64,000 bases of DNA, from the NCBI RefSeq assembly GCF_053078305.1, contig NZ_CP166879.1, one strand, 5' to 3'. Of the stretch, positions 1 to 8,537 are shown in pieces. Numbering within the stretch: the first letter of the stretch is position 1; each line of letters opens with the position of its first letter. Made by a program: the position numbers and the translations under genes. Under the pieces are notes generated by a model. It searched no databases, was not told the DNA's origin, and was given only the letters and a program-made list of their open reading frames with translations.

Positions 1-572
1 TGCGGGGTGTTCGTCTGCTGTTCGGGCGTGGTGTACTGACCGGCACAACGGACACGCTGAAAATCCAGAATGTGCAAATCACCGGTATGGATGGTGAAAC
101 CTTTGATGACGTTGAGCGCCCCCAGCAGTACGGGCAAATCAGCGTCCCCCTGCCTGGTGCGGAAGTTTTTCTGGCCTGTGCTGGTGGACAACGGGATCAG
201 GCCGTGGTGCTTGTGGTGGAAGACCGCCGCAGTCGCCCGACCGGACTTACCGCCGGAGATACCGGCGTGTATCACCATGAGGGGCACCGTATACGTCTGA
301 CAAAGAACGGCCGGATCATTGTGACCTGTAAGACGCTGGAGATTTACGCCGATGAAGGAGTTCAGGTGGATACACCGGAGGCTCACTTTACCGGTAATGT
401 CACAGTGGATAAGAACCTGCATGTCAAAGGCAATGTGTCCATTGACGGCACCGGAAGATCACAGGGGACGTTCACGATGTCCGAAGCGGTTATTGCCGGG
501 ATCACCTATTCAGGTCATGTGCATCACGATAACGGTGAAGGCAGCAAAACGGGAGGACCAGAGAATGGCTGA
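1..572 (+). CDS. Phage baseplate assembly protein V-like (Mu gp45 / P2 gpV type), 5' end outside window
   Basis: Open frame from window edge with no upstream stop; first gene of a V-W-J-I baseplate block; stop overlaps next start. Confidence 0.7.
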   Translation, partial: RGVRLLFGRGVLTGTTDTLKIQNVQITGMDGETFDDVERPQQYGQISVPLPGAEVFLACAGGQRDQAVVLVVEDRRSRPTGLTAGDTGVYHHEGHRIRLTKNGRIIVTCKTLEIYADEGVQVDTPEAHFTGNVTVDKNLHVKGNVSIDGTGRSQGTFTMSEAVIAGITYSGHVHHDNGEGSKTGGPENG

Positions 573-1002
573 TATTGCTGTCGTCTGGGATCAGGGTTGT
601 GGTTCCCTGCAACTGAACGGCGCAGATCTTCTGACGGATAACAGCCTGCTGACTGCGGTCATTATTTCACTGTTTACGGACAGGCGGGCGCTGGATTCCG
701 ATGAAATCCCTGACGGCACCCGTGACCGTCGGGGATGGTGGGGAGACAGTTTCCGGGAGCGCCCCATTGGCTCCCGTCTCTGGCTGTTAAGCCGTGAAAA
801 GACGCTGTCCTCCGTGGTCAGCCGTGCACAGGCCTATGCTGATGAAGCGCTGGCGTGGCTGCATAAAAGCGGTGCTGCCACATCCGTGGTATGTCATGCC
901 ATGCGTGTGGGGCATGATCGCCTTTCGCTTTCCGTGAAAATCACCCTGCCGGACGGAAGCAGACATCCGATGATTTTTTATGCTGATATGAAGGGGGAAT
1001 GA
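565..1002 (+). CDS. Phage GP46-family baseplate protein (gpW-like)
   Basis: ATG at 565 preceded by GGAGG, overlaps V stop; about 145 aa; position between V-like and J-like genes. Confidence 0.65.
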   Translation: MADIAVVWDQGCGSLQLNGADLLTDNSLLTAVIISLFTDRRALDSDEIPDGTRDRRGWWGDSFRERPIGSRLWLLSREKTLSSVVSRAQAYADEALAWLHKSGAATSVVCHAMRVGHDRLSLSVKITLPDGSRHPMIFYADMKGE

Positions 1003-2084
1003 TGCCTTATCAGCCCTTACCACTGGCGCAACTGATCACACAGACACAACAGGATATCAGCCAGCGCCTGCCCGGTTCGCAGCCGGGCGTGAATGAAACC
1101 ACCCTGAATGCCATTGCGTATGCACTGGCGGGTCTGTCAGCACAGGAGCATGAACATCTGGCCTGGATCTCCCGGCAGATAATTCCGACAGAAGCTGATG
1201 AAGCCGAACTCCTGAAACACTGCGCATTCTGGGGTGTCATCCGTAAACCGGCTTCCCGCGCTGACGGACCGGTACAACTGATGCTGACCACGGATGCAGG
1301 GATCACGGAAGGCGTACTCCTTCAGCGAAGCGATGGTGTTGTGTACCGCATCACCGGCTCTGCGACCGGAAAAGCCGGAACACTGAATGTTAATGTGGAG
1401 GCGGAAAGTGCGGGGCGCGCTGGAAATACCCCGACCGGAACCCGCCTGTCCTTTATCACGCCACAGGCGGGCATCAACCAGACAGCCACGGTCACCGGCA
1501 CGGGACTCACCGGTGGTGCGGATGTGGAAACGGTGCCGGAGTTGCTGTCCAGGCTGGTATTCCGGGTACAGAACCCGCCATCAGGGGGAACACAGTATGA
1601 TTTTGAACGCTGGGCACGGGAAGTACCGGGCGTGACGCGGGCATGGTGTAAGCCTGAATGGCCTGAGGCGGGTAGTGTTGGTGTGACTTTTGTTCAGGAT
1701 AATAACCCTGACATTTTCCCCGGAGAAGGTGATGTGAAGCGGGTGGCGGATTATATCCGCAGTCATGATGATCCGGCGACGGGCCAGCCCGTTGGTCAGC
1801 CACTTGGGCCGACAATCAGCGTGTTTAAGCTGACCAATAAGTCGGTGGCGTTTGAGATCAGGATTGTACCCAAAACGCCGGAAAATCAGGCTGCCGTAAA
1901 ACAGGCATTAACGGACCTGCTTTATAACGAATCGCGGCCGGGTGGACTTGTATTGCCTTCATCATTCTGGCGGGCTGTTGCAGGGGTGAAAGGACTGGAG
2001 GATTTTGAAGTTCGCAGTCCGCTGAAGTCCGTGATGGCCGGAGATACAGAGTTGCTGACCGTGGGGGAAATCACATGGCTGTAA
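999..2084 (+). CDS. Baseplate J-like protein (Mu gp47 / P2 gpJ type)
   Basis: 361 aa ORF, translationally coupled to flanking genes. Confidence 0.75.
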   Translation: MMPYQPLPLAQLITQTQQDISQRLPGSQPGVNETTLNAIAYALAGLSAQEHEHLAWISRQIIPTEADEAELLKHCAFWGVIRKPASRADGPVQLMLTTDAGITEGVLLQRSDGVVYRITGSATGKAGTLNVNVEAESAGRAGNTPTGTRLSFITPQAGINQTATVTGTGLTGGADVETVPELLSRLVFRVQNPPSGGTQYDFERWAREVPGVTRAWCKPEWPEAGSVGVTFVQDNNPDIFPGEGDVKRVADYIRSHDDPATGQPVGQPLGPTISVFKLTNKSVAFEIRIVPKTPENQAAVKQALTDLLYNESRPGGLVLPSSFWRAVAGVKGLEDFEVRSPLKSVMAGDTELLTVGEITWL

Positions 2085-2632
2085 CCCTGACCCCGCATCA
2101 GCGCGCCCTGTTGCAGTTGCTGCCTGACGGGCTGGCATGGGATAAGCGGCCGTCATCCGTTCTTGCAGCTTTGTGCCTGGGCCTCAGTCATTCCACGGAG
2201 CGTGTTTCCTGGACCGGTAACCAGATGCTGGCAGAACGTTTTCCTGATTCATCCCGTCTGCTGCTGGAAGACTGGGAGCGTTATCTGGGGTTGCCGGAAT
2301 GTGATATGACCGGCGCAACCATTCAGGAACGTCAGCGTTATGCCGGGAATAAATACCGGATGAAACCCTCTCTTAACCGTGAATTTTATATCCGGTTTGC
2401 GGCTGAGTTTGGTTATGAAATAGATATCCAGCCATCACCGGAATCACAATGGATCAGTATTGTGACAGTGAAGACGGCGGTGGGATACCGTCACATGAAT
2501 GTACTGGACGATATTCTTACACCACTGCGAATTTATGATGCAAGTGCGCTGGAGTGCATTTTAAACCGTTATAAGCCAGCCTGGCAGACGTTTTTATATC
2601 TGTACGAAAACAGTCATGAGGAGACGGAGTAA
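2075..2632 (+). CDS. Phage tail protein I-like (Mu gp48 / YmfQ type)
   Basis: 185 aa ORF overlapping J stop and immediately preceding the tail fibre gene. Confidence 0.65.
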   Translation: MAVTLTPHQRALLQLLPDGLAWDKRPSSVLAALCLGLSHSTERVSWTGNQMLAERFPDSSRLLLEDWERYLGLPECDMTGATIQERQRYAGNKYRMKPSLNREFYIRFAAEFGYEIDIQPSPESQWISIVTVKTAVGYRHMNVLDDILTPLRIYDASALECILNRYKPAWQTFLYLYENSHEETE

Positions 2633-3543
2633 TGTATTTTGTCGACAACAATTCAGGTGTGACCGATATGCCACCACTGGCCCCCTCTCAGGGTACGCAG
2701 GTTAAATGGTTTACTGAAGGTGACGGACGCAAAGGGATCAGCCATATCGGTCAGGACTGGCTGAACATCGTGCAGGCAGAGCTGCTTGCCATTCTGACAG
2801 AAGGAAAGGTTCAGCCGGATAAGGCAAAACTGAACCAGCTGGTGACAGCCATTAAGGCAATCATTGCAGCAAACGCATACAGCCGGAAAAACAACCTTAA
2901 GGAGATTGCGGATGCAGGTGCAGAAGCACAGGCTGCTGCCCGCCGTCATCTGGGGCTGGGAGGATTATCAGGAAAAGACAGTCTGGCTGCTGCTGATGTG
3001 GGAGCACTGGAGAAATCCCGGAATTTTGACGATGTACCGGATAAACCGACGGCCCGCCTGAATCTTGATGTTTACAGTAAGGGAGAAGGCGATGAGCGTT
3101 ATCTGCGCAGGGACCAGAATGGCGCGGATATCCCGGACAAAGGAACCTTTATCGATAACCTCGGTTTACGGGAAACGGTAAATAAGGCTGCTGATGCCCT
3201 GCCATCGGGTGGAACCGCCGTGGCAGCGAATAAACTCGCCACCCCAGTAAATATTAATGGCGTTCCTTTCGACGGAACGCAGGATATCAACATCACGTCA
3301 GGAATGACGCAGTCAACCGCAGATGGCCGGTATGTACAGAATGTTCAGCTTGGAGCACAGAGCTATCATTCACCCGGAGGCAATGAAATGTCATGGAATT
3401 ACAGCGCACCTTCCGGTTGTATGCTTTCCGGTATTAACGTGCAGGAAACCGGCTCCCGGTCTGCGGACAATATCGGTGGGGTCTATTATCGCCCGGTTCA
3501 GATTTATATTAATAATGCCTGGAGAACGGTAAGTTCAGTGTAA
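2632..3543 (+). CDS. Tail fibre protein: constant N-terminal part plus variable C-terminal cassette Sv (expressed orientation)
   Basis: 303 aa ORF; its 3' third contains the left 133-bp inverted repeat; variable C-terminus after position 3290. Confidence 0.8.
   Translation: MYFVDNNSGVTDMPPLAPSQGTQVKWFTEGDGRKGISHIGQDWLNIVQAELLAILTEGKVQPDKAKLNQLVTAIKAIIAANAYSRKNNLKEIADAGAEAQAAARRHLGLGGLSGKDSLAAADVGALEKSRNFDDVPDKPTARLNLDVYSKGEGDERYLRRDQNGADIPDKGTFIDNLGLRETVNKAADALPSGGTAVAANKLATPVNINGVPFDGTQDINITSGMTQSTADGRYVQNVQLGAQSYHSPGGNEMSWNYSAPSGCMLSGINVQETGSRSADNIGGVYYRPVQIYINNAWRTVSSV
3149..3174. other. gix/pix-like recombination site (left crossover site)
   Basis: TTATCGATAACCTCGGTTTACGGGAA, a 12-2-12 imperfect palindrome closely resembling the Gin gix site as recalled. 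Confidence 0.6.
3158..3290. repeat. Left 133-bp inverted repeat of the invertible tail-fibre segment
   Basis: Perfect reverse-complement identity with 4408..4540 (checked base by base). Confidence 0.9.
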
Positions 3544-3577
3544 ACCACAGAAAAGGGTGCTGAATGCACCCTCTGAA

Positions 3578-4099
3578 TTATTCCGGTTTTTCCGGCCAGG
3601 GAATCGCCTGGTAATGCCCCTCACTGGCAATATCATTAAAGTGCATTTCTTTAAGCTGTCGGATATACGCCATCCAGCGCGTCAGCTGTAATTTATTTTC
3701 ATCGCTAATCATGTCCAGTTTTAATTCCGTTTTCCAGTCATCCACAGTTTCGTTGGCTTCCTGGAGCAGCGATGAGCGGCGCTTTTCAGCAACCGTCTTC
3801 CAGTTTACCGGCACCTTTGATATCAGGCCATCAGAAAACTGCCAGTTACCGTCAATATCCACACCTTCCGGCAGTTCGTCCACTTCAACAACAGTAAAAC
3901 CTGCCGGATATAAAGCAGAGACATCTTCAGCAACAGAGCAGATAATACCCGTTACAGGCGAAATACAGAGTTTGTATTTCTTTGTGAAAAGCGGGAGAGA
4001 TTCATAAAAATCCCTTCCGTCCTCACTCTGGAAATACTGAACATCCTCACCATAGGGTTTGTGTTCCGGGTAATATCGTTTTACGTTAATAAGCTCCAT
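3578..4099 (-). CDS. Tail fibre assembly protein (Tfa/U-like), partner of the silent cassette
   Basis: Minus-strand ORF inside the invertible segment, just downstream of the Sv' cassette; start chosen at MELINVK with AAGGTGA SD. Confidence 0.65.
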   Translation of the reverse strand: MELINVKRYYPEHKPYGEDVQYFQSEDGRDFYESLPLFTKKYKLCISPVTGIICSVAEDVSALYPAGFTVVEVDELPEGVDIDGNWQFSDGLISKVPVNWKTVAEKRRSSLLQEANETVDDWKTELKLDMISDENKLQLTRWMAYIRQLKEMHFNDIASEGHYQAIPWPEKPE

Positions 4100-4178
4100 T
4101 ATTTCACCTTGTTTTTGTTGAAAAGACAAAATCATCATATATTTATTCAGATAATCTGTTTTTTGAACTACTGCACTT

Positions 4179-4407
4179 TTATGCGCTGGAAGCTGTTTTC
4201 CACGAACCATTTATCAGAAACTGAACAGGGCGATAATATGCGGTTACCGTTGCATTACCATCACCAGCGACATCAAGCCCTGTAAGTACGCATCCGTCAG
4301 GAACTTCAAAAATATTATATTGCATTCCAATCGTTGACCTTGAACCTCTTCGAATGCTTTGAACATAACGTGAGTCAGCCACAGACTGCGTCATCCCCGA
4401 TGTAATA
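4179..4407 (-). CDS. Alternative tail-fibre C-terminal cassette Sv' (silent in current orientation)
   Basis: Minus-strand frame continuous with the right inverted repeat, which encodes the same residues as the left one; C-terminal tail diverges from Sv. Confidence 0.65.
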
Positions 4408-4540
4408 TTGATATCCTGCGTTCCGTCGAAAGGAACGCCATTAATATTTACTGGGGTGGCGAGTTTATTCGCTGCCACGGCGGTTCCACCCGATGGCAGG
4501 GCATCAGCAGCCTTATTTACCGTTTCCCGTAAACCGAGGT
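4408..4540. repeat. Right 133-bp inverted repeat of the invertible tail-fibre segment
   Basis: Perfect reverse complement of 3158..3290. Confidence 0.9.
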
Positions 4541-4548
4541 TTCAGGGA
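4523..4548. other. gix/pix-like recombination site (right crossover site)
   Basis: TTCCCGTAAACCGAGGTTTCAGGGAT, inverted partner of the left site. Confidence 0.55.
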
Positions 4549-4603
4549 TGTCGTATATCTGCTTTAAAAGGCATTTTCACCTCTTTTTAAGGAAGGTAAA
4601 TAC

Positions 4604-5164
4604 ATGCTGATTGGCTATATACGCGTATCAACAAATGACCAGAACACAGGTTTACAAAGAAATGCGCTGGAATGTGCAGGATGTAAGCTGATTTTTGAAG
4701 ATAAAATGAGCGGAAAAACAACGCAGCGGCCGGGACTGAAGCGGGCACTGAAGAAACTAAAACCCGGTGACACGCTGATGGTCTGGAAACTGGACAGGCT
4801 GGGGCGCAGTATGCGCCACCTTGTTGCGCTGACAGATGAATTACAGCAACAGGGGATAAATTTTCGTAGTCTTACTGACAACATTGATACGTCAACCCCC
4901 ATGGGGCGCTTCTTTTTTCACATAATGGGTGCGCTGGCAGAAATGGAGCGTGAATTGATTGTCGAACGGACACGGGCTGGTCTTGCAGCTGCCCGTGAAA
5001 GGGGACGAACCGGTGGCAGACCCCGTCGTCTCACGCAGGAACAATACGAGCAGGTCGGGCGTTTACTGGCCGGGGGTGTCAGCCGAAGACAGGTGGCACT
5101 TATTTTTGATATCGGCCTTTCAACCCTTTATCGTTATTATCCTGCAAGCATTTCGGAAAAATAA
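4604..5164 (+). CDS. DNA invertase, serine recombinase of the Gin/Pin/Cin/Hin family
   Basis: 186 aa; N-terminal MLIGYIRVSTNDQ catalytic-serine motif; strong similarity to Mu Gin / e14 Pin as recalled; adjacent to the invertible segment. Confidence 0.9.
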   Translation: MLIGYIRVSTNDQNTGLQRNALECAGCKLIFEDKMSGKTTQRPGLKRALKKLKPGDTLMVWKLDRLGRSMRHLVALTDELQQQGINFRSLTDNIDTSTPMGRFFFHIMGALAEMERELIVERTRAGLAAARERGRTGGRPRRLTQEQYEQVGRLLAGGVSRRQVALIFDIGLSTLYRYYPASISEK

Positions 5165-5254
5165 GACGCTCCCTTTGTTGGGCCTTTACTGAATTAACGC
5201 AAAATGGCGTTTATCGGTCTGTGGATATGATAATTCTGTTTATTCAGGAACAGG

Positions 5255-7312
5255 ATGAATATTATGACGTCCAAATGGGTTCAACTATCATCAATGCCCG
5301 GAAACTTTACCGTTAAAGTTTCCGGTGGTACAGCGGCATTTCTTGAGGCTCCTTTTCCTCCGGCTGAAACGAAAGGAGGAATGACATTTGCTGACTGTCT
5401 CATCAGTTTTAATACACAGGATTGCCTGTGGGTAAGGCCAGTATCCGGTGATCCGAACGTGGAAATTACCGGAGCGGGTATTGGTGCTGTCATTCCGTTA
5501 AGTGCTGATGTTGCCGGTACTACTGAACCGTCAGACTGGGATAATGCTGAAACACATACCCGTCCGGCAGGAAATGAAACGGCTTCCAGCTCCCCTTCCT
5601 GGTATTACGTGATTGTTATAGCCGGTCAGTCCAATGCTTCATCTTATGGTGAAGGGTTGCCCCTGCCGGATTCTTATGATCGTCCTGATCCACGTATTAT
5701 GCAGCTGGCACGCAGGAATACACAAACCCCCGGAGGTATTCCCTGCAAATACAATGAAATCATTCCAGCAGATCACTGCCTTCATGATGTTCAGAATATG
5801 AGTCTGCTGAACCATCCAAAAGCAGACCTGAAAAAAGGGCAGTATGGTTGTGTGGGTCAGGGACTTCATATTGCGAAAAAAGTATTACCGGTGATTCCTG
5901 CTGATGCCGGGATTTTACTGGTTCCCTGTGCCCGTGGCGGCTCTGCTTTTACAACCGGCGCAGTTGGCTCATTCGATCCGGCAAGTGGTGCAGCCGAGGC
6001 GTCACTACGCTGGGGAGTGGATACCCCACTGTATCAGGATCTTGTCAGTCGAACGAAAGCGGCACTTGAGGCGAATCCAAAGAATGTGCTGTTATCTGTC
6101 GTATGGATTCAGGGGGAAGGAGACCTTAAAGCGACCCCGGCCCAGCATGGTGCCCAGTTTACTGCGATGGTGAAAAAATTCCGTGCGGATCTTGGTGCTT
6201 TCTCCGGTCAGTGTATTGGTGGTTCATCAGACAGTGTGCCGTGGTTATGTGGTGACACAACCTATGACTGGAAAGAGAAGAACCCGGCGGCATATGAAAC
6301 CATTTATAGCGGATATAAAAACCGGGCTTCCGAGAACATTCACTTTGTTCCACTGATGCACGATGAGTTCGGTAATAAAACCGCGACCAACCTGCCGGAG
6401 CACGACCCGGATATCGCTTCTGCCGGGTATTATGGTGCGGAATCACGGGGAGATGGCAACTGGACAACAGCATCCAGGGCAACCCATTTTAGCTCCTGGG
6501 CGCGCCGTTTTCTGGTCTCAGATCGTTTTGCATCAGCAATTCTTAAATATGCAGGTCTGACCTCTGCATTTATTGCCGGTGTGGCCCCTGATGGTGAAGC
6601 CCTGCCTCAGCCCGCGCCGGGTGGAAAACCGGAAGCTCCGACAGGTAGTCAGCCAGGAAGCAGTGAGTCCCCCCAGCCGACATCCCCGTCACTCCGTACG
6701 CTGCTTTCACTTAAAGCATCAGCAGGGGAAGCCCCGGCTCAGGGATGGAAAATTACAGATGGTACAATCCAGCTGACGGACGAAGGTAAAGCGCTGACCG
6801 TATCCAAACAAAGCGGAAAAACCTGGTCACTTACCCATGCGACCAGTGCTGCCGGAGAGCTGTTGCAGCATGGTGGTCAGTTGACCTGTAAATTCCGTCT
6901 GTCAGGTGAAGTAAAAGAAGGCCAGTTTGCTCTGGGTATTTACCTCCACACCGATACGGTCCCGGAAGGTGTAACCATGAGTGGTACAGGCACACCGTTC
7001 CTGATGGCGTATTATCTCCAGACAACAGGCGGCCAGTTAAATCTGATGCACCATAAAACAGGGGGGAATACGAAACTGGGATCATTTGGAGCCTACAATA
7101 ACCAGTGGCATACACTTGTCCTGAAGTTTACGGCGGGAAGTGCCCAGGTAACGCCTGTGCTGGATGGCACTCCGGGCCAGGCATTCCAGATGGTGAAAGA
7201 TGCACTTTCCCCTGCCAAAGATACGCTGACACTGACAGATGTCACCAAAGGGGCAACTTATGGCGTGTCTTTTGAGAGCGTTGTCCTTGAGGTTAATACC
7301 CCTGCGGCATAA
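5255..7312 (+). CDS. Prophage NanS-like sialate O-acetylesterase (SGNH/SASA hydrolase core with N- and C-terminal extra domains)
   Basis: 685 aa; core YYVIVIAGQSNASSYGEGLPLPD...CGDTTYDWKE resembles E. coli NanS (YjhS) as recalled. Confidence 0.75.
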   Translation: MNIMTSKWVQLSSMPGNFTVKVSGGTAAFLEAPFPPAETKGGMTFADCLISFNTQDCLWVRPVSGDPNVEITGAGIGAVIPLSADVAGTTEPSDWDNAETHTRPAGNETASSSPSWYYVIVIAGQSNASSYGEGLPLPDSYDRPDPRIMQLARRNTQTPGGIPCKYNEIIPADHCLHDVQNMSLLNHPKADLKKGQYGCVGQGLHIAKKVLPVIPADAGILLVPCARGGSAFTTGAVGSFDPASGAAEASLRWGVDTPLYQDLVSRTKAALEANPKNVLLSVVWIQGEGDLKATPAQHGAQFTAMVKKFRADLGAFSGQCIGGSSDSVPWLCGDTTYDWKEKNPAAYETIYSGYKNRASENIHFVPLMHDEFGNKTATNLPEHDPDIASAGYYGAESRGDGNWTTASRATHFSSWARRFLVSDRFASAILKYAGLTSAFIAGVAPDGEALPQPAPGGKPEAPTGSQPGSSESPQPTSPSLRTLLSLKASAGEAPAQGWKITDGTIQLTDEGKALTVSKQSGKTWSLTHATSAAGELLQHGGQLTCKFRLSGEVKEGQFALGIYLHTDTVPEGVTMSGTGTPFLMAYYLQTTGGQLNLMHHKTGGNTKLGSFGAYNNQWHTLVLKFTAGSAQVTPVLDGTPGQAFQMVKDALSPAKDTLTLTDVTKGATYGVSFESVVLEVNTPAA

Positions 7313-7369
7313 TCGTGACGGCCGGGAATTTATCCGGCTGTAACATCAGTTAATAAGAGTGAGGCTTAT

Positions 7370-7549
7370 ATGACATATATAAACGTCTGCCTGCTGTATT
7401 TCTGCACGGTGGTTTGTTGTCTGTTGCTTGTCAGCGGTGGTTATAAAATTATTCGCAATTATTTTCGAAATAAAATTGATGCAGCTGCCGAGGAAAAGAT
7501 AAAAAGCGGTGCTGTAATGCCGCAGCCGAAAGACTCCGGTCAGATTTAA
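7370..7549 (+). CDS. Hypothetical small membrane protein (59 aa, one predicted TM helix, Cys-rich)
   Basis: ATG with GAGTGAGG SD; hydrophobic N-terminus INVCLLYFCTVVCCLLLVSGG; below ORF-track cutoff, found by manual translation. Confidence 0.35.
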   Translation: MTYINVCLLYFCTVVCCLLLVSGGYKIIRNYFRNKIDAAAEEKIKSGAVMPQPKDSGQI

Positions 7550-7584
7550 TTTTTTGTGAACCAGAAAAGGAAAGGAGAATATTC

Positions 7585-7830
7585 ATGCCAGAGATTAAAG
7601 GCACGGTTACTGAAGAGCTTGTCAAACAGGCACTTTATTCTGAAGAAGTGAACCGCGTGCTGAAGGCGCAGGTTCGCAAGGATTTTGAGGCACAAATCGA
7701 CGCATATGTTGATGAAGTGCTGGCCCGAATGGTTGGCCATTCTCCGGCTGAAAACAGCACGGAGAATGAGCCTCAGCCCGTAGAGCAACCAGAGCCGGTT
7801 CAGCCCGGAACTGACAGTGCCATGATGTAA
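7585..7830 (+). CDS. Hypothetical acidic protein (81 aa)
   Basis: Strong SD AAAGGAAAGGAG upstream of ATG; followed by a hairpin terminator. Confidence 0.45.
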   Translation: MPEIKGTVTEELVKQALYSEEVNRVLKAQVRKDFEAQIDAYVDEVLARMVGHSPAENSTENEPQPVEQPEPVQPGTDSAMM

Positions 7831-7836
7831 CAATAC

Positions 7837-7869
7837 AAACCGACAGCTTCTCCTGTCGGTTTGATTTTC
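7837..7869 (+). terminator. Rho-independent terminator
   Basis: AAACCGACAG-CTTCTC-CTGTCGGTTT followed by a T-run. Confidence 0.55.
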
Positions 7870-7904
7870 ATGGGCGATGTATATACCAGTCAGAGGAAAT
7901 AATC

Positions 7905-8105
7905 ATGGACAAGAACAAAAAGCAGCCCGATACCAAAGGTCTGGAAATATTAAGCGCAGAAATTATCAATGCGCTACGTTCAGGACTTGATGAAAATACA
8001 TTACAGGATCGAAACTTCACCACTGCAATGTGGATAGCGATGCAGATCCTGTGTACCCCAAGATGCGCTATTTTTGCGGTTCGTGAGGGTCAGTTGACTC
8101 GCTGA
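7905..8105 (+). CDS. Hypothetical protein (66 aa)
   Basis: ATG with GAGGA SD; no recognisable family. Confidence 0.35.
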   Translation: MDKNKKQPDTKGLEILSAEIINALRSGLDENTLQDRNFTTAMWIAMQILCTPRCAIFAVREGQLTR

Positions 8106-8274
8106 TTGCCCGAATTACATCAGAAAAGCACGCGTTCCATAATTGCATAGCTGATGAATCACCAGCTGTATGAAAAGAGGTAAAGACACAACTGGTGGAT
8201 GTCATTGCTGCAATTGTGATATCAGCTGCAATTCGCGCAGCCTGTAACTTTTGGTCGGTGGTCAGTTTATCCAT
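8068..8274 (-). CDS. Hypothetical protein (68 aa), convergent and 3'-overlapping the 7905..8105 ORF
   Basis: Minus-strand ORF; second ATG has AGGAG SD; only one of the two overlapping ORFs may be real. Confidence 0.25.
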   Translation of the reverse strand: MDKLTTDQKLQAARIAADITIAAMTSTSCVFTSFHTAGDSSAMQLWNACFSDVIRAISESTDPHEPQK

Positions 8275-8352
8275 TTTCTCCTGCCTGAACAGATGCATCT
8301 CTGCTTTACAGGAGGCCGGGGAATATCATAGGATACACCACGAGCTCAGAGT

Positions 8353-8508
8353 GAAGCATTGATGCAGTTTTTTACAGATTGACCCAGAATAGTTCGCGCT
8401 ATCTGAGTCGCCATTTATGTAGTCCCGAAGTAAAGCATTGATGCAAACTTGTCTAAATCGGCCCAGCATAGTTCCAGCTATGCTGGGTTTCCCTTTTATG
8501 TAGTATCC
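8353..8508. repeat. Two imperfect tandem repeats of about 75 bp, the second with a 10-bp-stem hairpin and T-rich tail
   Basis: Shared AAGCATTGATGCA ... CCCAG-ATAGTT ... TTTATGTAGT; hairpin CCCAGCATAG/CTATGCTGGG at 8462..8487. Confidence 0.5.
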
Positions 8509-8537
8509 TGTTGATTTGAAACATACTACATATACGC

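Follow-up and report, generated by a model that had tools for sequence, protein, structure and literature searches.

The 64,000-nucleotide stretch of DNA that we analysed (the window) carries, at 3161–4537, a Gin/Pin-type invertible fibre segment in which two alternative fibre tips lie on either side of a single tail-fibre assembly gene, tfa. We favour the reading that this one tfa is shared by both tips and is transcribed independently of the orientation of the segment; we regard it as probable, our confidence being higher for the sharing and lower for a promoter in the spacer upstream of tfa. That tfa is probably shared and transcribed on its own follows from the occurrence of both orientations in nature, the pairing of this class of Tfa with tips of the expressed type, the selection acting on the gene and the existence of a lineage that is locked with tfa facing its only fibre gene.

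Positions 1–9780 of the window form the right-hand part of a Mu-like prophage, with genes in the order baseplate V/gp45, gp46, gp47, gp48, fibre, invertible segment, invertase, esterase-domain gene, DUF1378, DUF826, com and mom. Beyond the prophage lie host genes, including the trp operon, with up to 99.2% identity to Escherichia coli. The com and mom genes occupy the right end of the prophage (8690–9780), and two GATC sites are found just upstream of them (8700–8716), as in the Dam-controlled mom region of Mu. The gene after the invertase (5255–7312) encodes a product of 685 aa that combines a SASA domain (sialate-type carbohydrate esterase) with DUF6645, and has a late-promoter-like box at 5186–5231; this product may be a second tail protein that modifies or binds a receptor. 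Relatives that lack the invertase have a second fibre gene and a DUF4376 protein in place of the esterase-domain gene. The features of the fibre locus are as follows.

2632–3543, plus strand: tail-fibre gene as now expressed, 303 aa, made up of a constant part (2632–3160) and the tip A cassette
3149–3174: left crossover site, TTATCGATAACC-TC-GGTTTACGGGAA, 26 bp, gix-like, aligning to the left G-segment boundary of Mu, TTATCCAAAACCTCGGTTTACAGGAA
3157–3338, plus strand: left inverted-repeat arm, coding for ~58 residues common to both cassettes
3161–4537: invertible segment, core to core, 1377 bp, both orientations known in nature
3339–3543, plus strand: variable tip A, now expressed, ~68 aa, the tip type of co-linear relatives
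3552–3574: hairpin GGGTGC-loop-GCACCC between two stop codons, from a terminator scan and folding
3578–4099, minus strand: tfa, tail-fibre assembly gene, 173 aa (Caudo_TAP, PF02413, 1.2e-18, above cut-off)
4100–4178, minus strand: AT-rich spacer from the tip B stop to the tfa start, 79 nt, 25% GC, candidate site of a tfa promoter
4179–4535, minus strand: silent tip B cassette, giving an in-frame fusion and a 295-aa fibre after inversion
4524–4549: right crossover site, TTCCCGTAAACC-GA-GGTTTCAGGGAT, 26 bp, gix-like, aligning to a G-segment boundary of Mu
4604–5164, plus strand: serine DNA invertase, 186 aa (Resolvase 5e-51, HTH_7 1.7e-14)
5186–5231, plus strand: candidate activator-dependent late promoter of the esterase-domain gene, with the box TTACTGAATTAACGCAAA, 22 nt and then TATGAT (21 bits)

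The two crossover sites are in inverted orientation and, on alignment, have the same central dinucleotide as the G-segment boundaries of Mu. They are placed inside inverted repeats of 182 nt, 3157–3338 being 91% complementary to 4360–4541. The segment reads, from left to right, tip A, hairpin, tfa (minus strand), AT-rich spacer and tip B, and the neighbouring invertase is 69% identical to Mu Gin (with 73% nucleotide identity of its gene to the first 220 nt of gin). Flipping 3161–4537 in silico converts the 303-aa fibre into an open 295-aa fibre that is followed by tfa, which bears out an earlier note on this DNA, made from its letters alone, in proposing that tfa joins the read-through of the late operon only after inversion. 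The tip B fusion is also intact in the flipped state of the O157 prophage described below.

Residues 1–198 of the fibre align to residues 1–191 of Mu S, and residues 228–302 to Mu S 434–503 (5YVQ_A, E = 4.6e-49). Tips A and B are homologous to one another, with about one third of residues identical over the variable part and a common ending, YYRPVQ..IN..W.T.SS. Judged by these alignments, both tips are of one structural class, that of the Mu S C-terminal domain, and inversion swaps only the last 65–70 residues of a short Mu-S-like fibre. The Mu G segment (S, U, U′, S′, gin) agrees with the window in its baseplate–fibre gene order, in the place of crossover within a homologous constant fibre part, in 26-bp sites that align and in a tip domain and Tfa that are homologous (to S and U, respectively). 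The Mu segment spans ~3 kb and has a tfa gene 2 nt after each of its two fibre cassettes, whereas the window has a 1.4-kb segment, a fibre without ~240 central residues and one tfa with a 79-nt spacer. The e14 P segment of E. coli K-12 (stfP, tfaP, tfaE, stfE, pinE) shares a YmfQ/gp48-type gene upstream, invertible fibre ends and an adjacent Pin invertase, but has two tfa genes arranged tail to tail, neither of them close to the window Tfa. For P1, one record held two Tfa-like places.

The window Tfa matches Mu U (5YVQ_B, 1.9e-15 over residues 17–147), and it is from the homology of fibre and Tfa to the two chains of this entry (Mu S and U) that a putative role of Tfa in binding the fibre C terminus and in trimer assembly is proposed. 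The entry is reportedly, from work by North et al. in 2019, a fibre–chaperone complex in which the N-terminal domain of Tfa sits on the fibre C terminus. The window tfa is co-oriented with silent tip B and convergent to the expressed fibre gene, the fibre stop being separated from the tfa stop codon by 34 nt (3544–3577). Tips (~732 bp), tfa (522 bp), spacer (79 bp) and gap (34 bp) take up nearly the whole 1377 bp of the segment, and a second tfa would not fit. A layout of one chaperone per cassette, with two tfa genes each directly 3′ of its own cassette, is not the one found in the window segment. A profile built from diverse Tfa proteins detected no second Tfa ORF in the whole 64-kb window, and neither that profile nor the ORF list contains a plus-strand Tfa-like ORF within 3291–3577. 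The earlier note was correct on this anatomy, having described a single tfa co-oriented with the silent cassette, its convergent placement within 35 bp of the expressed cassette with no space for a second chaperone, and the lack of a plus-strand candidate in the latter interval.

In a longer ORF (3578–4210, minus strand), 37 further codons precede the tfa start, and their stretch takes in the tip B stop. The 173-aa start is favoured by the RefSeq annotation of relatives and by a ribosome-binding site; the ORF reaching 4210 is probably an over-call, as are, probably, public calls of 190–210 aa in this family.

The hairpin between the two stop codons (3552–3574) folds with −15 to −20 kcal/mol (z −2.7 to −5.8) and has a U-run after the stem in the tfa sense. 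Read in the tfa direction it resembles an intrinsic terminator, and in the fibre direction a weaker one. Among three variants of this hairpin the stem is fixed and the loop differs. A second element flagged as terminator-like, a perfect 7-bp-stem hairpin (GCGTTCC-N7-GGAACGC), is present in both repeat arms (3260–3280 and 4418–4438); it is probably coincidental, because it lies within coding sequence and is less perfect in the O157 relatives.

Region 2000–5300 is ~92% identical to a Mu-like prophage of E. coli O157:H7 and further strains, in which the genes stand in the same order and tfa is likewise single. We equate the O157:H7 relative with Sp18 of E. coli O157:H7 Sakai by way of its published description, in which Sp18 is judged intact and has an invertible host-specificity region with genes unlike those of Mu (PMC2669165); that paper is silent on the single chaperone and its expression. 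Compared with the Sp18-type O157 prophage, the window copy is a diverged allele. Complete E. coli genomes with the segment at ~92% identity number 181 for the present orientation and 23 for the flipped one (matches over at least 80% of the query, the flipped query having been built in silico), a surplus that is confounded by clonal O157 genomes. The IMG/VR relatives divide into 16 in the present orientation and 4 flipped, and one IMG/VR contig is 100% identical to window positions 1–9652. What appears to be the source strain (genome id 2617271340) has two prophage copies (L103 and L104) that are 99.7–99.9% identical, with segments that are 100% identical and in opposite orientations, which points to a duplication of the prophage in this genome and a recent flip of its segment. 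Homology to the second copy stops near 9780, beside a DUF2207 gene and the yciO/trp region.

More distant relatives, with Tfa identities of 72%, 68% and 61%, have the same one-tfa layout in Mu-like prophages, and those at 72% and 68% were seen in both states. A second tfa, which the earlier note had suggested looking for in related prophages, is therefore not what these relatives have. An alignment of eleven segments is a mosaic: tip A and the N-terminal half of Tfa are conserved, the C-terminal half of Tfa comes in three variants, tip B in three types and the spacer in three types (51, 79–80 and 115–121 nt) that are mutually unrelated in sequence. The element family is known and, on the evidence of these comparisons, its one-tfa design is maintained and not accidental. 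In the literature that we searched, we found no discussion of one-tfa invertible segments; the SfMu paper concerns a Mu-type two-tfa segment. Inversion of a Mu prophage of EPEC has been reported without coordinates and hence is not tied to this family (PMC4272514).

Co-linear relatives, which have no invertase and in which tfa follows the fibre gene by 4–17 nt, indicate which tip this Tfa accompanies. Among unique co-linear fibre–tfa pairs with this Tfa subfamily, the tip is closest to tip A in 31 of 37, these tips being mostly 56–69% identical to tip A and ~30% to tip B. Tip A is therefore of the class normally accompanied by this chaperone; such pairs point to the tip A class as the natural partner of the Tfa subfamily, the opposite of what had been assumed. 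In a comparison of 42 loci, two tip types were seen convergent to tfa and at least four co-oriented with it. Identity between the N-terminal halves of Tfa is at least 72% even where that between tips is down to 19–40%, and each Tfa allele is found with several tips, a pattern that fits a chaperone without one-to-one tip matching. Tip A itself is under strong purifying selection (dN/dS 0.07 at dS 0.8, against the L010 variant).

The earlier note had drawn another conclusion, that the fibre would at present be made without a cognate Tfa. Tip A would then fold unaided, or the particles would be non-infective and the present orientation an off state. The orientation of tfa, antisense to the late operon with a hairpin between, is in keeping with such a proposal, as is a window spacer without a convincing promoter, but the 31 co-linear pairs join tips of the A type to a co-oriented tfa of this very subfamily. 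The tip is moreover a homologue of the Mu S C-terminal region, and PDB entry 5YVQ contains S together with its Tfa (S and U chains); hence a chaperone-independent tip, the escape that the note had allowed, does not apply to the class as such. The present orientation is also the majority one in lysogens, which would be odd for an off state. We consider it unlikely that the present orientation lacks Tfa, and the lineage described next adds to this assessment of a shared, independently transcribed tfa.

One common deletion, found in nine loci (L016, L029–L034, L040 and L048) and in seven complete E. coli genomes, has taken away the invertase together with the greater part of tip B; what is left is a tfa that permanently faces the sole fibre gene and has only ~150 nt upstream of it. 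The deletion lineage, to which L101 (strain M18) and L102 (strain CI5) also belong, carries either of two tip types. Every extracted tfa of the lineage is intact, and the alleles, at dS of up to 0.43, have dN/dS of 0.10–0.36, a selection signal of which part may stem from invertible relatives, since the high dS in tfa beside nearly identical flanks reflects recombination importing tfa alleles. Strain M18 has an apparently complete prophage of this lineage inside a type I restriction gene, and strain CI5 has one (right-hand third seen) inside a xanthine dehydrogenase gene; the different insertion sites mean that the phage type has moved since the deletion. An intact tfa under selection in a locked lineage argues for tfa being useful, and hence expressed, when convergent. 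Retention of tfa under purifying selection at new insertion sites is at odds with a convergent state without Tfa, and, with the co-linear pairs, speaks against the earlier conclusion on the present fibre.

The deletion lineage is equally hard to reconcile with Tfa being supplied in trans by co-resident prophages, such that the resident tfa would matter only after inversion. Several tfa genes are common in E. coli genomes, and the apparent source genome does have a second, flipped prophage copy. Supply from elsewhere leaves the intact, selected tfa of a permanently convergent lineage unexplained, however, and would make infectivity hang on chance co-residents; the 64-kb window itself has no other Tfa ORF. 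We judge this explanation to be very improbable, and return to tfa being transcribed from its own segment.

The gap between tip and tfa is 51–121 nt long (25–30% GC) in one-tfa Mu-like loci; in all but one of the 54 co-linear relatives it is 4–17 nt, and in Mu 2 nt. On the minus strand, the window spacer has a −10-like TATGAT (4134–4139), 34 nt from the tfa start, and a weak −35, AAAACA (4157–4162). On the plus strand, there is a partial late-activator box (4160–4177; 11 bits, ~0.02 expected by chance) with a spacing 2–4 nt off that of the other boxes. Sigma-70 consensus scans of 2500–5400 and of the three spacer types gave nothing convincing upstream of tfa, and a first pattern search for a late-activator box in the window returned no match. 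The box as scored was derived from three late-gene upstream regions together with the tfa-spacer copy of a complete relative. The lysis, protease and esterase-domain genes of the M18 prophage are preceded by TTTCTGA-N4-CCGCAAA and, 22–23 nt after it, TAnnnT. One Mu-like tfa spacer type has a 16/18 copy of the box, 24 nt from a TATTAT that faces tfa, a spacing at variance with the 22–23 nt seen elsewhere. As published, a Mu late promoter combines a −10 hexamer with an imperfect activator dyad centred near −43.5 and lacks a −35 (PMC2582627), and the box layout of the esterase-domain gene fits this form. By reasoning from these features, we place a putative tfa promoter in the window's own spacer.

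A promoter that transcribes tfa in the present orientation could instead lie outside the spacer. Candidate places are the silent cassette, the inverted repeat and the 54-nt interval from the right site to the invertase gene, from which it would read inward. An inward promoter at the invertase-proximal end would read any cassette placed there, and two one-tfa loci, L129 and L177, do without a spacer. The deletion lineage still maintains tfa with only its ~150 nt upstream, though, and the scan of 2500–5400 saw no promoter-like site in that direction. The enlarged spacer is, in addition, specific to one-tfa designs. On balance we find a promoter outside the spacer improbable, and prefer one within it.

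Segments of other phages permit the one-tfa layout to be placed in a wider setting. We fetched 80 loci by invertase similarity and defined crossover sites for 28 P2-like segments, which have one Tfa in 14 cases, two in 13 and none in 1. The earlier premise that each cassette comes with its own chaperone thus stands for Mu and e14 (two tfa genes each) and fails as a general rule, half of these 28 other Gin-type segments having a single Tfa. Like the window, the P2-like one-tfa segments (IMG/VR L125–L177) have a tip, one central Caudo_TAP gene and at least one inverted tip, occur in both orientations, have an invertase that is 72–77% identical and mostly have a long gap before tfa. They differ in their P2 H-like fibre and tip families, and in a gap with TGT-N12-ACA in place of a Mu-type box. 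A shufflon-like arrangement, in which several silent tips and three or four crossover sites go with a single Tfa, is seen in L152:3816–5907, L125, L130, L131, L133, L150 and L175.

Gaps before tfa in the P2-like segments have a median of 1 nt where there are two tfa genes, and measure 72–95 nt in 11 of the 13 measurable one-tfa segments. Exactly one TGT-N12-ACA, the P2 late-promoter consensus (PMC3931495), is found directly upstream of tfa in 12 of 14 one-tfa segments, which represent essentially two families, and is followed 33–34 nt later by a −10-like hexamer. These loci also have the motif where it is expected for the V and F operons. In P2 late promoters the motif is positioned near −55. 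L129 and L177, both one-tfa, have neither a long gap nor TGT-N12-ACA.

Recurrence of the design in P2-like phages also argues against decay, a scenario in which the prophage is defective and its two-tfa ancestor lost one of the genes. In favour of it, two tfa genes are present in both Mu and e14, and one lineage did lose its invertase and tip B by deletion. Against it, no tfa remnant is present, the 34-nt gap consisting of just the conserved hairpin, and the layout persists where Tfa has diverged to 61% identity and with several tip types. The M18 relative is apparently complete, and the published assessment of Sp18 is of an intact prophage (PMC2669165). With the layout conserved and remnants absent, we reject decay of a two-tfa ancestor as scarcely credible, and retain a single tfa shared by design.

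A general rule can be put forward at slightly under even confidence. One-chaperone invertible segments would carry their own activator-dependent late tfa promoter inside the flipping DNA, of Mu C-type in Mu-like phages and of Ogr-type (TGT-N12-ACA) in P2-like phages. Supply of the chaperone would be independent of orientation, and short tips would be freely swapped under one generalist Tfa.

On the reading that we favour for the window, the locus is the host-range switch of an Sp18-type Mu-like prophage and a minimal form of the Mu G segment. The serine invertase flips the 1.4-kb segment between gix-like sites inside the fibre gene, and the single chaperone gene between the tips would serve both. 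In the flipped state, tfa lies directly 3′ of the fibre gene and would be transcribed as part of the late tail operon. As the segment now stands, tfa would be transcribed alone, its promoter most likely being in the AT-rich spacer and travelling with the segment, and the hairpin between tip A and tfa would stop transcription arriving from either side.

Within the sequence data, the one-tfa segment is a regular and common design and not a case of a missing gene. This corrects the textbook expectation, taken from Mu, P1 and e14, of an own chaperone gene for each alternative tip, and it accounts for the small size of such segments. Annotation should be cautious not to call such loci defective, nor to adopt the over-long tfa ORF of 200–210 aa. 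Should a generalist Tfa with its own late promoter prove to be the arrangement, tip cassettes of ~200 bp would be exchangeable alone, which would be useful for engineering the host range of phages and tailocins.
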